Made by a program: the position numbers and the translations under genes | Part shown: piece after piece, positions 1,644 through 9,998 of the stretch | Position numbering within the stretch: the first letter of the stretch is position 1 | How the letters are laid out: the number at the start of each line of letters is the position of its first letter | The notes under the pieces: model-generated | The model's input: only the letters and a program-made list of their open reading frames with translations | What the model was told of the DNA's origin: nothing | Databases searched by the model: none | Assembly (NCBI GenBank): GCA_016840035.1 | Contig: JAEOTC010000098.1 | Location: 1 to 10,632 of the forward strand | DNA length: 10,632 bases | Reading direction: 5' to 3' | Origin: Candidatus Hodarchaeota archaeon | GTDB lineage: Archaea; Asgardarchaeota; Heimdallarchaeia; Hodarchaeales; Hodarchaeaceae

Positions 1644-1952
1644 TTAGATTAGCCATTCTGTTCTTAGTTGGCCAAATTCATCACTAGATATCTCAAATTT
1701 ATCAAAGCTTTCTTCTTTTATAGCTATTTTAACCGCAAGACTATGTTTACACTGGAAATAAGGGTCTTGATAAAGGCCTTTCTGAAAAGCGTAACATCTA
1801 CACCAAACTGGATTAGATAAGTTAAGATATTCGCGAGCATTGCCAACCACTACCCATCGTTCGTGCTTTCCATCAATTATATATTTTTTAACAGATTTTT
1901 TCTGAATGAGCTTCTTTGCAGCTTCCAATTTTTTGGAAAATGAAACAGACAA
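1644..1952 (-). CDS. SWIM zinc-finger protein, SWS1/ZSWIM7 (Shu2)-like
   Basis: CRCYAF-x11-CKHSLA fits CxC..F..CxHxxA, preceded by a WVVVG..EY beta hairpin. TTG start directly abuts the upstream TAA. Confidence 0.8.
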   Translation of the reverse strand: MSVSFSKKLEAAKKLIQKKSVKKYIIDGKHERWVVVGNAREYLNLSNPVWCRCYAFQKGLYQDPYFQCKHSLAVKIAIKEESFDKFEISSDEFGQLRTEWLI

Positions 1953-2537
1953 TTAGCTCTTCACCTGTTTAAGAATAAAATCCAGAGCTGCAAGATATTC
2001 GGTCTTAAATTCAAGATCCTTTCTTAATTCCTGATCACGTAAATTGAATTCATCTATGGAAAGCTCTTCAACATCTTTTCGTACGGCAAGCTCCTCTATC
2101 TGAAAATTCAATACCTGAATTAAGGGCTGTGTTTGTTGTCTGGCGATTTCGAGTTTTTTGAGGAATCTGCTAAGATCCTCTGTTAATTTATTGAATTCTG
2201 TATGATATTCATCTTTCAGAGCTTGATACACTTCTGGTTGGATTGTATTTCGTTTTTTTTCCAATTTTTCCAATCTTTCTTTGAGAACGGTCTGATTTCT
2301 GAAGATTTCTAATAATAAGTTCGATTCTTCACTTGATCCAGGACTTTCATCCTTCAAAGTAGATATTTCTGTTTCTATGCTTTGGATTTCTGCTTTCTTA
2401 TCAATTCCCTCAATCTCAGATTTGACAAGTAATAGCTCAAGCTCCTCCTGTAACTTGGATAATTTTGTTTCTGACTTAAATTGTACTGCTAGCTTAATAA
2501 TCGCTTTCGGGGAGAGATCTTCAATATTGGGGGTCAA
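1953..2537 (-). CDS. Coiled-coil protein, CdvA-like helical domain (no PRC barrel)
   Basis: Heptad-rich, E/K/L-rich sequence. ERLEKLE..IQPEVYQALKDEY and IEELAVRKDVEELSIDEF resemble the two hairpin turns of CdvA-like coiled coils (by eye). TTG start with GGAGTAGG upstream. Confidence 0.6.
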   Translation of the reverse strand: MTPNIEDLSPKAIIKLAVQFKSETKLSKLQEELELLLVKSEIEGIDKKAEIQSIETEISTLKDESPGSSEESNLLLEIFRNQTVLKERLEKLEKKRNTIQPEVYQALKDEYHTEFNKLTEDLSRFLKKLEIARQQTQPLIQVLNFQIEELAVRKDVEELSIDEFNLRDQELRKDLEFKTEYLAALDFILKQVKS

Positions 2538-2785: not shown

Positions 2786-2894
2786 ACGAGGAAACAGAGA
2801 AGTATCTAAAGTCGAAGAAAAAAAATCTTAAGATACATAAATTGTGAGCGGTTAGACTAAGGATTAAAAAACAATTCCACAAGAAGGATTGAAT

Positions 2895-4679
<1,785 letters not shown>

Positions 4680-6081: not shown

Positions 6082-7425
6082 ATGGAAATTCAAACAGAAA
6101 AAGGAAAAGACTTTGAAATACGAGATTCTTCCTTAGCTGAAGCAGGAAGAAAAACAATGGACTGGGCTGAGAGTAGAATGCCTGTCCTGAAACTAATCAA
6201 ACAACGGTTTGAAAAGGAGAAACCGCTGGAAGGTGTAAAAATTGGCGCTTGTCTGCATGTTACCAAAGAAACATCTCAACTTTGTGATACTTGGCTTGCA
6301 GGAGGAGCGGAAGTATTTTTGTGCGCCTCCAATCCTCTTTCCACTCAGGATGAGATTCCAGCTGCATTAGTGGAAAAAGGAGTCCATGTGTATGCCTGGA
6401 AATTTATGGACACTGAAGGGTACTATCGATCGATTGGAAATGTCATTGCATCCCGTCCTCATATCACAATAGATGATGGAGCGGATCTAGTAAGCATTTT
6501 GCATAAGTTGAAACGAGGGGAAACCGATTCGGAAATCGAGGTCGTAAAGCAAATCATTGGAGATACAAGAGATATTATTGATGGAGTATGGGGTGGAGCA
6601 GAAGAAACAACTACAGGTATTATTCGATTAGAGGCAATGGCAAAGGATAATGCACTCTTATATCCAATTATGGCTACTAATTCATCTCCCTGTAAAAATC
6701 TCTATGATAATGTATATGGAACAGGACAATCTACAATAGATGGTATACTTCGGGCAACTGCCGATTTAATTGCATCGAAAGTGTTTGTAGTTGCTGGATA
6801 TGGACATTGTGGGAAAGGAGTAGCAATGAGAGCAAAAGGAATGGGAGCTCGTAGAGTTATCATTACTGAAATTGAACCTCATGCTGCACTGCAAGCTGTC
6901 ATGGAAGGAATGGAAGTTATGTCAATGATAGAAGCAAGTAAAGTAGCCGATATCATCGTAACCACAACAGGCAATCGAGATGTTTTGAGAAAGGAGCATT
7001 TCACCGTTATGAAAGATGGTTGCTTATTAGCAAATTCAGGTCATTTCAATGTAGAAATTAACATACCCGACTTAGAGAATCTTTCAGTGGAAAAAATCCA
7101 AATAAGACCGTTTGTAGAGCAATTTGTATTATCTGATGACAGAAAAATTAACTTATTAGGAGAAGGACGGCTAATTAACTTAGCAGCTGCAGAAGGACAC
7201 CCTTCCGAAATTATGGGGATAAGTTTCTCTCTACAGGCTCTAGCGACAGAATATATAGCAAAAAACAAAGATAAATTTACAAAAATAGGGGGAAAAGTCT
7301 TAGAAATACCAAAAGCAATCGATGATAACGTTGCTCATCTAAAATGTAAAGCATTGGGGATCGAACTCGATGTATTAACAAAAGAACAGGAAAAGTATCT
7401 TTCCAGTTGGAAGGTTGGAACTTAG
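6082..7425 (+). CDS. ahcY: S-adenosylhomocysteine hydrolase
   Basis: CLHVTKET, SNPLSTQD, DDGADL, EETTTG, KNLYDNVYGTGQS, GYGHCGKG (NAD binding), NSGHFNVEI, GRLINL..EGHP. Confidence 0.97.
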   Translation: MEIQTEKGKDFEIRDSSLAEAGRKTMDWAESRMPVLKLIKQRFEKEKPLEGVKIGACLHVTKETSQLCDTWLAGGAEVFLCASNPLSTQDEIPAALVEKGVHVYAWKFMDTEGYYRSIGNVIASRPHITIDDGADLVSILHKLKRGETDSEIEVVKQIIGDTRDIIDGVWGGAEETTTGIIRLEAMAKDNALLYPIMATNSSPCKNLYDNVYGTGQSTIDGILRATADLIASKVFVVAGYGHCGKGVAMRAKGMGARRVIITEIEPHAALQAVMEGMEVMSMIEASKVADIIVTTTGNRDVLRKEHFTVMKDGCLLANSGHFNVEINIPDLENLSVEKIQIRPFVEQFVLSDDRKINLLGEGRLINLAAAEGHPSEIMGISFSLQALATEYIAKNKDKFTKIGGKVLEIPKAIDDNVAHLKCKALGIELDVLTKEQEKYLSSWKVGT

Positions 7426-7446
7426 ACAAATGTAAGTATGAAATCT

Positions 7447-9075
7447 TTATTCAATCGTTTTTTTATGTTGATAAAGATCAATTGTCTGCTTAATTAAGGG
7501 CAAGAGATCACTATACTCTGTAACATAGCTACTAAAGATTTTGAAGTATGATTCTGTACCAATCACATCACTTTTCCTTAATTTCTCATCAAATTTCCAA
7601 GGAAAAATGGATTTGGCGACTTTATAACTCCTAAAGTTTGAATTTTTCAGATACTGTAGTAATATATTCTGATCATTATTTCTACAGATTACTAGAACAG
7701 GTTGATTAATCCCAGTTTTATTCTTCGTTATTCTTATATGAGACCTAATTCCAAGAATGTTATTCAATTGATCACTTAAGAATCTTACATCGGTGACGGG
7801 GAAATTGTGAGTACTAAAAAGTATAGATGAGGTAGAATAACTGCCATCTCCAATATACCAATGTAGCAAGGTATCAGGTGTGATACGTAAAGTTTTTGGT
7901 ACAATTTTAGACGATTTAGGATACCATACATTATAAATCTCACGAAATTGAGTTGTAAAACTGCTCCATAAATTGAAAGTATGATATTTACTCCCTGTCG
8001 ACTTTGCATTTCCAAAATTTGTTGATAAATTAATCGAATTCCCTTGAAATATGTGTTTCAAATGTAATATCCAAGGAAGTGATAGGATCGAAGAACAAAG
8101 GTGCATTCTTCCCATTGAGTAACAAAGAAGGCATTTTAAAGCAAGATTAAATCTATTTATTGCCTCTTCAATCTTTTTTGGAGCTATAGTCTGAAAGTTT
8201 CTCATACACGAAACACTAGTTAGATACTCGCTAAGTGAGAGAGAGTCAGTTATCAAACAATTTTTCCTTTTTAATTCAAGACTCAAATCTCCAAGTAGTT
8301 CCCCATTGAGTACCTCCATTAGATAAGGATTTAATGGGAGGTGAAAGCCACCAGAAACATGTTTACGCACATTTCTCAGATTACGAGTTCTAATGACATC
8401 AGCTTCATCTAAGATTCGTCTGATTGTCGTTCGAGGAAACCCCCAACGAGTAGCAATACTTTCAATAGAATTCAAACGAAGATAATCAAGAATAATACTT
8501 GATTTTGGATACTCCTTGGTTTCAATCCCAGCAGCTGCATGACGTCTTTTTAGTTTATAAATTCTCAACCAATTCTTTAAAGAAGTTCTCGAGATACCTA
8601 ATTGATGCGTGATTTCATTGAAGGGCAGTTCTTGCTCAGTATATAACTCGATAAGGCGGTTACGTTTTACATCTGTAGGAAGCCACTTAATTACTTGTTG
8701 TGGTTCCATTTGTAGTTGTACACTGATTTCTGAAATAGGAATGCCCTCTAAAAACATATAAACTATTTTCTTAGTTATCTTATCATGTAGTCCTGATTTT
8801 TTTGCATAAGAAATAATCGTTTTTGAATCAATTCCTAAACGATTGGCAATCGTTTCATAGGGAAGCCCTTGATTCATGAAATCCTCAATACTATTGAGAA
8901 GTATAGTCCGAGGAAAATTTCTGACAATATGCGTCTTACTTAAGTTCAATAGAAGAGCAATCTCGGGAAAATTCCTTCCCTGTAAAAAAAGTTCAACCGC
9001 TTGAGCAAAAGGAACTTGAATTGAGTTTTTACTTTCATCTGATGGAGGATCAAAAAACTTGTCTTTGTCTTGCAT
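7447..9075 (-). CDS. Free-standing LAGLIDADG (I-SceI/LAGLIDADG_2-type) endonuclease with five N-terminal HTH modules
   Basis: Motif 1 VLNGELLGD (D263) and motif 2 TPDTLLHWYIGDGS (D410), plus WY..KIVP, STHNF..DVRFL..L...LGI and FPWKF. Residues ~24-231 hold five modules of the form L-Y/F-x-x-G-x-P/S-x-x-E-I-A-x-x-L-G-I-S-x-x-T-I. Confidence 0.8.
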   Translation of the reverse strand: MQDKDKFFDPPSDESKNSIQVPFAQAVELFLQGRNFPEIALLLNLSKTHIVRNFPRTILLNSIEDFMNQGLPYETIANRLGIDSKTIISYAKKSGLHDKITKKIVYMFLEGIPISEISVQLQMEPQQVIKWLPTDVKRNRLIELYTEQELPFNEITHQLGISRTSLKNWLRIYKLKRRHAAAGIETKEYPKSSIILDYLRLNSIESIATRWGFPRTTIRRILDEADVIRTRNLRNVRKHVSGGFHLPLNPYLMEVLNGELLGDLSLELKRKNCLITDSLSLSEYLTSVSCMRNFQTIAPKKIEEAINRFNLALKCLLCYSMGRMHLCSSILSLPWILHLKHIFQGNSINLSTNFGNAKSTGSKYHTFNLWSSFTTQFREIYNVWYPKSSKIVPKTLRITPDTLLHWYIGDGSYSTSSILFSTHNFPVTDVRFLSDQLNNILGIRSHIRITKNKTGINQPVLVICRNNDQNILLQYLKNSNFRSYKVAKSIFPWKFDEKLRKSDVIGTESYFKIFSSYVTEYSDLLPLIKQTIDLYQHKKTIE

Positions 9076-9176
9076 ATATGAATTACATACTTGTCAAATC
9101 ACGTATAAGATTGTAAGAGAGAGAGAACTCTGAAAATGAGATTGTAAATGTCCTGATAACTGCTAGTAGAAGTTCA

Positions 9177-9998
9177 TTATTGGGGAAGCGATTCTAAAAA
9201 GAAATTAGTTACAGTTAGTTGCCCCTGGTAAAAGTTCGCATTTTCCGTTAAAAAATTCTGAAAGTTTTTGATACTCTTAAGATCGTGATTGAACGAGATA
9301 TCATTATACCCAATATTTTCGAGAATCAATCCTTCTGGAGGAGCACAGGGGGGTTTAGGCCCACTATACTGGTCCTCAAAGAGAGATTCGGTGGTAGATA
9401 CGGGTAGATCAGTGGTAGCAACTTCAATTAAATGGCCAATAATTCGTCGAACTTGCTGCCATAGAAACGATTGAGAGGAGATACGTAATTGTAGAATATT
9501 TTCAGACTGTTTTAAGATTGAGGTTTCAACAACAGTTTTAATAGGATTTTTGGGTTTCTTAGAATCGGTTTTAGCAAAGTTCTGAAAATTATGTGTTCCC
9601 TGAATCAAATTGAAAGATGTTTCCAATTTTTCGAGGTCAAACTTATCAGAAATGACTAAGAAATATGAGTAAGTTCGAAGAAAAGCATTTTTCCTAGGAT
9701 GAAAATCGTCTGCAACAATCGTTTGGCCTAATACCCGAATTCCAGTAGGTAAGTATGAATTAATTTCTGGAATGATAGGACTGTGACCAGAATCTAAAGA
9801 GATAACCTGATATAATGCGCCAACACCACGATCAGTTCTACTTGCAAATGTAACATTATCCTTTGATTGGAGGAGCCTTGATTGAGTTAAAGCTTTGCAT
9901 ACTAATGTAAAAATATTCGTTGTATCGTGAAGCTGGTGATTAAAGCCACTGTAGTTAACATCTGGAATATACCCAATTTTTAATGCATACTGGGGCAT
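9177..9998 (-). CDS. truA: tRNA pseudouridine(38-40) synthase TruA, archaeal type
   Basis: ALKIGY..YSGF, ASRTDRGV (catalytic Asp), RTYSYF, GTHNFQNF, SFLWQQVRRI, APPEGLIL. Tandem TAA TGA stop. Confidence 0.93.
   Translation of the reverse strand: MPQYALKIGYIPDVNYSGFNHQLHDTTNIFTLVCKALTQSRLLQSKDNVTFASRTDRGVGALYQVISLDSGHSPIIPEINSYLPTGIRVLGQTIVADDFHPRKNAFLRTYSYFLVISDKFDLEKLETSFNLIQGTHNFQNFAKTDSKKPKNPIKTVVETSILKQSENILQLRISSQSFLWQQVRRIIGHLIEVATTDLPVSTTESLFEDQYSGPKPPCAPPEGLILENIGYNDISFNHDLKSIKNFQNFLTENANFYQGQLTVTNFFLESLPQ

Follow-up and report, generated by a model that had tools for sequence, protein, structure and literature searches.

The stretch of DNA analysed here (the window) comprises 10,632 nucleotides of contig JAEOTC010000098.1 from the Candidatus Hodarchaeota archaeon assembly GCA_016840035.1, and the element of interest is a solitary open reading frame (ORF) at positions 7447-9075 of its minus strand, which we call gene X. 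The window is chromosomal DNA of low G+C content (about 35%) from an Asgard archaeon of the Heimdall/Hodarchaeales group. It codes for an HD-domain protein, a DHH phosphoesterase, two conserved ORFs of unknown function, the A-type ATP synthase subunit A, archaetidylserine decarboxylase, archaetidylserine synthase, AhcY, X, TruA and a NOG1-type GTPase. X starts with ATG and specifies 542 residues, in which five helix-turn-helix (HTH) units precede a LAGLIDADG core of the I-SceI type. It converges with ahcY (adenosylhomocysteinase; 6082-7425, plus strand), only 21 nucleotides (7426-7446) separating the two stop codons, and truA (9177-9998, minus strand) lies 101 nucleotides upstream on the same strand. 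The coordinates given in an earlier sequence-only reading of the window, including this 21-nucleotide gap, proved correct throughout. Both neighbours are full length, ahcY matching TIGR00936 with 565.8 bits over positions 1-416 of 416 and truA matching TIGR00071 over positions 4-228 of 228, and no host gene is interrupted at the locus. A Pfam scan detected no intein or Hint family in X, while no Rfam search for introns was made. The absent Hint match and the uninterrupted flanking genes argue against an intein- or intron-encoded LAGLIDADG protein, and bear out the description of X as a stand-alone gene. No terminal inverted or direct repeats of note bound it, and PADLOC, queried for membership in a defence system, returned a generic 'HEase' match only. 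A paralogue count, which the sequence-only reading had proposed, showed X to be single-copy in its own genome (4.3 Mb, 87% complete).

The product of X matched the Pfam family LAGLIDADG_2 (PF03161) over residues 323-463 with 57.8 bits, above the curated threshold of 25 for membership in this family. We built an AlphaFold2 model on 56 relatives, with a mean predicted local distance difference test score (pLDDT) of 93.4 and a predicted template modelling score of 0.76. In this model five tri-helical HTH units lead into a LAGLIDADG core of two lobes, the first of which holds a two-helix insertion, and a helical tail forms the C-terminus, in agreement with the fusion architecture that had been proposed from the sequence. 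The core (residues 231-499; 7579-8385, minus strand) corresponds to a monomeric two-lobed endonuclease by both structural and profile matches. Its best structural matches were I-SceI and I-WcaI (Z 20.4-19.4, root mean square deviation (rmsd) of about 3 Å over about 202 residues), with VIA-align superimposing 202 of 223 residues on I-SceI chain 1r7m_A at an rmsd of 3.0 Å and Z 20.4. Matches to I-DmoI, PI-PfuI and WhiA were lower, at Z 12-14 (about 13 for I-DmoI, 12.3 for the WhiA chains). The relationship to I-SceI was also recovered by Foldseek (E 5e-7) and by a sequence profile comparison (E 1.7e-9), the latter placing D410 and K390 of X on D145 and K122 of I-SceI.

The first LAGLIDADG helix (residues 250-263; 8287-8328, minus strand) ends in GELLGD with the acidic D263 (8287-8289), and the second (residues 400-411; 7843-7878, minus strand) ends in HWYIGDG with D410 (7846-7848). 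Both motifs, in the forms GELLGD and H-W-x-I-G-D-G, are invariant in seven orthologues of X. Across the 56 relatives at least 90% conservation was seen at G258, L261, G262, D263, N310, Y385, K390, P393, D410, G411, K494 and F495. K390 in the KIVP motif (7906-7908, minus strand) is the candidate active-site lysine, and K494 in the WKF motif (7594-7596, minus strand) is a second conserved basic residue, the putative equivalent of I-SceI K223. The retention of both acidic residues and both lysines, to which the sequence-only reading had drawn attention, is confirmed, and given the conservation of D263, D410, K390 and K494 in orthologues and relatives alike, the active site of X appears intact. 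Nuclease activity and homing are predicted properties of X. The conserved N310 falls in the two-helix insertion (residues 281-318; 8122-8235, minus strand), which occupies the β1-β2 loop of the first lobe, and a helical extension past the I-SceI core (residues 501-541; 7453-7575, minus strand) closes the protein. The ratio of non-synonymous to synonymous substitution rates (dN/dS) of X is 0.19-0.28, indicating purifying selection, and is close to that of truA (0.21 in the least saturated pair).

Within the first 230 residues of X the Pfam families HTH_23 and HTH_28 scored above their cut-offs. Secondary structure assigned by DSSP on the models delimited an N-terminal array of five tri-helical units (8404-9027, minus strand), namely residues 17-53 (8917-9027), 56-93 (8797-8910), 96-131 (8683-8790), 134-172 (8560-8676) and 191-224 (8404-8505). 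Units 1-2 and 3-4 represent an internal duplication (residues 18-96 against 97-182, E 7e-9), and the array modelled alone reached a pLDDT of 81.8. Single units resemble the HTH domains of GerE/LuxR, AsnC, IstA and resolvases (Z 6-7, rmsd 1-2 Å over about 41 residues). A search for a solved counterpart of the whole array recovered only such single-unit matches and one designed repeat protein, PDB 8vd6, which was the sole solved chain to align with several units at once (residues 20-178: profile E 5.6e-8; structure Z 7.2, rmsd 8.8 Å). As 8vd6 is a computationally designed 'CAP repeat' protein (PMC12339374), this match probably reflects a generic idealised HTH repeat. By analogy with the TALE (transcription activator-like effector) array of engineered megaTALs, its most likely role is to extend the recognition of DNA and to provide an anchor for it. 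The spacer between truA and X (9076-9176, minus strand), the probable promoter region of X, contains two near-identical 12-mers 31 nucleotides apart, ATAAGATTGTAA at 9105-9116 and ATGAGATTGTAA at 9136-9147. A similar pair is recognisable in Candidatus Heimdallarchaeota B3_Heim. The 12-mers could be promoter elements, or they could form an operator through which the HTH array regulates its own gene.

X is rare in public data, a word search having found eight proteins among 5.8 billion, and an exhaustive profile search delineated a wider family of 76 cluster representatives at E <1e-30. The nearest public relative is a hypothetical protein of B3_Heim, and strong genome matches are concentrated in the window's own class. 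Scans of metagenome and genome contigs for further loci of the X subfamily returned only distant relatives or loci already known. Members of the wider family are named in public databases as hypothetical, HTH-domain-containing or LAGLIDADG family homing endonuclease proteins. Relatives with 22-35% identity to X are solitary at other intergenic sites among housekeeping genes, such as the gaps that separate two aldehyde dehydrogenase genes, TrmO from a radical-SAM gene, and RNase HII from ArgRS. Their lengths of 446, 550, 846, 919 and 1099 residues reflect different extents of the HTH array, which is a variable-length module in this family. In the LAGLIDADG_2 protein of 1099 residues (P0014, L060 5748-9047) about 700 residues belong to the array. 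Three further proteins of 700-820 residues (P0069, P0085 and P0099) apparently carry many tandem HTH units, with no nuclease-domain match among the listed Pfam families. Separately, one of the X-bearing loci contains a 312-residue gene near its HD-domain gene (L004 13037-13975) with faint matches to LAGLIDADG_3 and LAGLIDADG_WhiA, and these archaea may possess in its product another LAGLIDADG-derived protein, distinct from X.

Ten loci of the X subfamily could be read, namely those of the window's own genome (G000), B3_Heim (G058), G077 (locus L003), L004, L058, L006, G060, L079, L080 and one Logan contig. X lies directly downstream of ahcY, in convergent orientation, in all ten. The gap between the two genes is 1-130 nucleotides, except in L006, where an IS605-family tnpB gene (Cas12f-like) and a small HTH ORF sit exactly between X and ahcY (9580-10935). 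The ahcY genes of these loci range in identity from 100% down to 56%, and the other neighbour of X is variable: truA in the window's genus, and elsewhere an epimerase gene, a BpsA/AdoMet_dc gene or an orphan ahcY fragment. Given this variability and the depth of ahcY divergence, the stable partner of X is the 3' end of ahcY, and not the pair of ahcY and truA, between which the sequence-only reading had placed it; truA, its upstream neighbour in the window's genus, is an inconstant partner.

To survey the occupancy of this site we fetched the regions downstream of ahcY from the other genomes of the window's genus (22 genomes in all), of which 18 loci, together with the window's own, were readable across the spacer between truA and ahcY. 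In all 19 the NOG1-truA pair and ahcY are convergent neighbours. X is intact in three (G000, G058 and G077) and truncated after the first LAGLIDADG helix in a fourth (G060), leaving 310 residues with the C-terminal half deleted. Bare spacers of 27-466 bp were seen in 12 genomes, sister species of carriers included, so the empty alleles that the sequence-only reading had suggested seeking do occur. In the remaining three the spacer holds an NAD-epimerase gene (G072 and G068) or a small membrane ORF (G069). On a host tree derived from concatenated ahcY, truA and NOG1, at least six changes in the state of X are needed, and the X-bearing G058 and the X-less G063 are immediate sisters with 100/100 support.

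The spacer ORFs of G072 (L050 1658-2734) and G068 (L052 3714-4823) specify 358-369 residues and resemble the Epimerase/3Beta_HSD-family gene at the same position of the Logan contig, on which this epimerase gene and a split X occur together. The ORF of G069 (L053 1571-2038) specifies 155 residues and is hydrophobic-looking. The presence of such unrelated cargo in several species implies that the truA-ahcY spacer tolerates or attracts accessory genes.

Several copies of X are decayed. In addition to the truncated gene of G060, a single in-frame stop interrupts the L079 copy near residue 320, that of the Logan contig is split into ORFs of 197 and 344 residues, and the HTH region of the L080 copy is broken. 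Furthermore, the seemingly empty spacer of G074 is a deletion scar, in which a 1.6-kb internal deletion of X has left the upstream spacer, the first 14 nucleotides of the ORF (in which AAG replaces ATG), its last 30 nucleotides and the 3' spacer. At least some empty sites have therefore arisen by loss. This scar is the sole solid remnant of X among the empty spacers that were checked. In protein-level comparisons with the spacers of G066, G076, G075, G065, G067, G064 and G063 the best local scores stayed within the range of shuffled sequences, and a profile search of six-frame spacer fragments found nothing past the copies of X already known. We also observed a conserved non-coding element of about 130 nucleotides after truA in one clade (L043-L046, L058, L003 and L051). 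A GAAGAG-TAG-CTCTTC hairpin with a T-rich run after it forms part of this element, which is retained where X is gone (G066 and G076); it may be the terminator of the truA operon rather than a remnant of X.

Three sets of observations bear on how X reached its present hosts. The first concerns the sisters G058 (B3_Heim) and G063, which are 91-98% identical over NOG1, truA and nucleotides 1-1118 of ahcY. Over nucleotides 1119-1344 of ahcY 30% of sites differ, against 7% upstream. This pair has a ratio of 3' to 5' ahcY divergence of 4.2, compared with 1.3-2.0 for control pairs, and a Fisher test against one control pair gave p 5e-6. The maximum chi-square method put the breakpoint at ahcY nucleotide 1118 (chi-square 103). 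In the 3' tract the distances of G063 to G061 and G062 are normal and it is B3_Heim that stands apart, which identifies the X-bearing B3_Heim as the recombinant. The foreign segment of B3_Heim begins at the 3' edge of a conserved NLAAAEGHP block in ahcY and extends through X up to the truA stop. The second footprint comes from L080, a distant soil lineage, in which X has a complete ahcY on one side and, on the other, an orphan duplicate of the final 61 codons of ahcY. This orphan begins near codons 383-387 and shares 79% identity with the 3' end of the resident gene. Such a layout is what would be expected if a cassette of the ahcY 3' end and X had been copied into a break in ahcY, displacing the original 3' end. 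The third is the deletion scar of G074, the flanks of which are 86% identical (196/227 nucleotides) to those of mP0006 in a comparison in which the genes around the locus reach 73% (p 9e-6). With the X locus found in G074's own host clade the identity is no higher than 54%. When G074 is set against its true host sister, G066, similarity in the non-coding flank falls below that of the genes, which is normal for DNA that does not code, and the sister genomes of G074 are without the scar.

These three independent footprints in the sequences suggest that alleles of X also enter laterally at the ahcY site, probably together with the ahcY 3' end. In the window the homologous tract that apparently travels with X in other lineages spans positions 7200-7425 of the plus strand. 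The breakpoint between G058 and G063 and the start of the L080 orphan point to a candidate homing or cleavage zone at 7177-7241 (plus strand), which comprises the NLAAAEGHP block (ahcY nucleotides 1096-1122) and about 40 nucleotides after it.

Vertical inheritance has also left a signal. The window copy of X shares no more than 53% identity with its nearest relative and lies in conserved synteny, which marks it as an old, intact resident and not a recent insertion. We found no sign of X jumping to new sites. Between G077 and mP0006 no trough of divergence is centred on X, identity being flat across the locus. The synonymous divergence (dS) of X is 0.43, compared with 0.66 and 0.90 for its neighbours, a difference that is suggestive at most.

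Several results weigh against homing by X. A tree of the eight X sequences agrees with that of the hosts, X is as well conserved in nucleotide sequence as its neighbours in the closest X-bearing pair (G077/mP0006), and no transfer among living copies of X is visible. Taken with dN/dS, the congruent tree and the neighbour-like identity imply that X has long been a functional resident of each lineage that keeps it. An approximately unbiased test on the 304-nucleotide 3' segment of ahcY did not reject a clade of G058 and G063 (p 0.18). The transfer tract of G074 stops at the ahcY stop codon and excludes the ahcY 3' end, and this event is therefore a misfit with a cut at nucleotides 1118-1160. No position in ahcY that would separate X-bearing from X-less alleles stands out over background. 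Ordinary homologous recombination could likewise transfer any accessory gene that has conserved genes on both sides. All the genomes are metagenome-assembled genomes or metagenome contigs, so that assembly chimeras could mimic mosaics, though they would not explain the duplication in L080. Finally, the sample is small, at about 13 loci in all.

Taking both bodies of evidence together, we consider it probable from these sequences that X is a free-standing homing endonuclease that cuts X-less alleles of ahcY and is copied into them along with the ahcY 3' end. In such a cycle, the enzyme, in a cell that meets the DNA of an X-less allele, would cut in or near the conserved ahcY segment at about nucleotides 1118-1160. 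Repair would then copy the donor's ahcY 3' end and X into the broken allele, by intron-less homing. The resident X would thereafter be inherited vertically, and would later be lost through a nonsense mutation, frameshift, truncation or deletion. A homing cycle of this kind has been described (PMC1654191, PMC3229294), and intron-less homing is known from T-even phages (PMC2790892). An intact-looking nuclease, a constant address at ahcY, polymorphism between sisters, a series of decaying copies and recombination tracts that start from a conserved ahcY block and take the ahcY 3' end along with X are all expected under it. Cleavage, its target site and the nuclease as the driver of the transfers are inferences. 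The sequence-only reading had left the choice between a selfish intergenic homing element and a domesticated protein, and the empty alleles, the decay series and the three footprints lean towards the former. It had also held that fixed synteny with a vertical phylogeny would refute mobility. As the synteny does not vary and the intact copies branch as their hosts do, mobility to new sites is unsupported, and what the evidence favours is a probable spread of alleles at one site.

The domesticated alternative would make X a nuclease or DNA-binding protein in the service of its host, comparable to HO or to a regulator, that is ancestral, vertically inherited and lost where not useful, the footprints being ordinary exchange of alleles. 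The congruence of the X and host trees would be natural for such a protein, as would its single copy at a fixed locus, the purifying selection maintained over saturated synonymous divergence and the retention of catalytic residues over long periods. However, X is dispensable, being absent or broken in 19 of 22 species of the genus, among them sisters of its carriers, and it has decayed repeatedly. Moreover, it has no functional link to its neighbours, sitting at the 3' ends of both, and its relatives occur as lone genes at intergenic positions of various, unrelated kinds. The orphan ahcY duplicate of L080 and the foreign tract of G058 would be unexpected for a purely vertical gene. We therefore regard domestication as unlikely, although it is the rival that deserves most weight.

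A still less probable history is that X was formerly a homing endonuclease and is now a passive accessory cassette, moved by homologous recombination between conserved flanks and slowly decaying. The many broken copies, the unrelated cargo in the same spacer (the NAD-epimerase gene of G072 and G068, the membrane ORF of G069) and the end of the G074 tract within the spacers would suit it. Yet in a neutral gene a frame of 542 codons would not have stayed open across at least six divergent lineages, and neither the dN/dS of 0.19-0.28 nor the invariance of active-site residues across lineages with saturated synonymous sites accords with slow decay. It is very improbable that X is a transcription factor resembling WhiA, in which the LAGLIDADG scaffold serves for binding only and the HTH modules regulate. 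WhiA likewise combines LAGLIDADG and HTH elements, its chains match the core at Z 12.3, and the 12-mer pair upstream of X is possibly operator-like. Nevertheless, the two acidic residues and two lysines conserved in X are missing in WhiA (PMC3384342), the order of the domains is reversed, the Pfam family LAGLIDADG_WhiA gave no match, I-SceI scores far higher (Z 20.4), and the patchy distribution of X differs from the universal one of WhiA. Domain content likewise does not fit an identity of X as WhiA itself, a maturase or a transposase.

A wider set of claims would follow from homing by X, and taken jointly we advance them only tentatively, at somewhat less than an even chance. X would represent the first case of LAGLIDADG intron-less homing in a cellular archaeal chromosome. 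It would be a natural 'megaTAL-like' nuclease of a family in which 2 to more than 10 HTH units form a modular addressing head, one that targets ahcY and carries the ahcY 3' end along. Its coming and going would be direct evidence of DNA exchange and homologous recombination in the Hodarchaeales, which are the closest known archaeal relatives of eukaryotes. If X is indeed a homing gene, free-standing ('intron-less') homing would no longer be confined to phages and organelles, but would also take in archaeal chromosomes and the LAGLIDADG class. Nature would already have built the megaTAL design, with a DNA-addressing repeat array fused ahead of a meganuclease, and family members with longer or shorter arrays could be mined for long, specific targets. 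X would also be a traceable marker of gene flow and recombination in Hodarchaeales and Heimdall-type Asgard archaea, in which these processes are otherwise hard to observe. Were X domesticated instead, it would be a second, independent capture of the kind seen in WhiA and HO, with the active site kept.

Elsewhere in the window, the gene for the A-type ATP synthase subunit A (2889-4679) is solitary, the other ATPase subunit genes not being beside it. Its G+C content of 0.41-0.43 is above that of its surroundings, and it is missing at the matching position of L004, where the phosphatidylserine decarboxylase gene directly precedes a 194-residue ORF. The adjacent ORFs of 194 and 102 residues at 1644-2537 (minus strand) belong to no Pfam or NCBIfam family, and their synteny is conserved in B3_Heim and L004.

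A full-text search of the literature, incomplete in its coverage, found no published LAGLIDADG enzyme with a tandem-HTH array and no free-standing LAGLIDADG homing in archaeal chromosomes. Among characterized enzymes X is nearest to I-SceI and I-WcaI, the monomeric LAGLIDADG_2 enzymes of yeast mitochondrial group I introns, with which it shares the fold, the lobe order, membership in PF03161, the acidic residues at the helix ends and the correspondence of K390 to K122. Unlike these, X is not encoded in an intron, resides in an archaeal chromosome and is only 19-20% identical to them in sequence. It further exceeds them by about 230 N-terminal residues with the five HTH units, the two-helix insertion in the first lobe and the 40-residue helical tail at the C-terminus. 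In its genomic behaviour X resembles the seg and mob genes of T-even phages (e.g. mobE, PMC2790892), which are also intergenic ORFs beside a conserved gene and polymorphic between close relatives. Both have a modular DNA-binding region that includes HTH units, and with X, as with the phage genes, flanking host sequence may be co-converted. However, the phage enzymes belong to the GIY-YIG or HNH classes and act in phage co-infections, whereas X is a predicted LAGLIDADG nuclease of a cellular archaeal chromosome. Free-standing LAGLIDADG ORFs of fungal mitochondria and algal chloroplasts (e.g. PMC4524492, PMC11328819), which X also resembles in lifestyle, likewise lie outside introns and inteins. 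By their descriptions they are set apart from X in that they are not archaeal, and none has been reported with a multi-HTH array.

In its domain layout X parallels the engineered megaTALs, in which a TALE array precedes a LAGLIDADG meganuclease (PMC3936731), both having an N-terminal modular array followed by a monomeric LAGLIDADG cutter. The megaTALs are man-made and use TALE repeats rather than HTH units, and in X the reading of DNA by the array is a predicted role. WhiA (DUF199) and HO offer a looser comparison, by analogy, as free-standing chromosomal proteins that join a LAGLIDADG domain to an additional DNA-binding domain. WhiA has lost the catalytic Asp and Lys residues (PMC3384342) and bears its HTH at the C-terminus, while in X these residues are conserved and the array is N-terminal; HO is derived from an intein and has zinc fingers. 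Furthermore, WhiA and HO are fixed in their clades, in contrast to the patchy occurrence of X with its active site kept. The archaeal CRISPR-repeat-binding protein Cbp1 shares with X the tandem tri-helical HTH units and gave weak matches (NF040595, E 0.0099; PDB 2lvs), but it has three units and no nuclease, and as the match is far below the cut-off X is not a member of that family.

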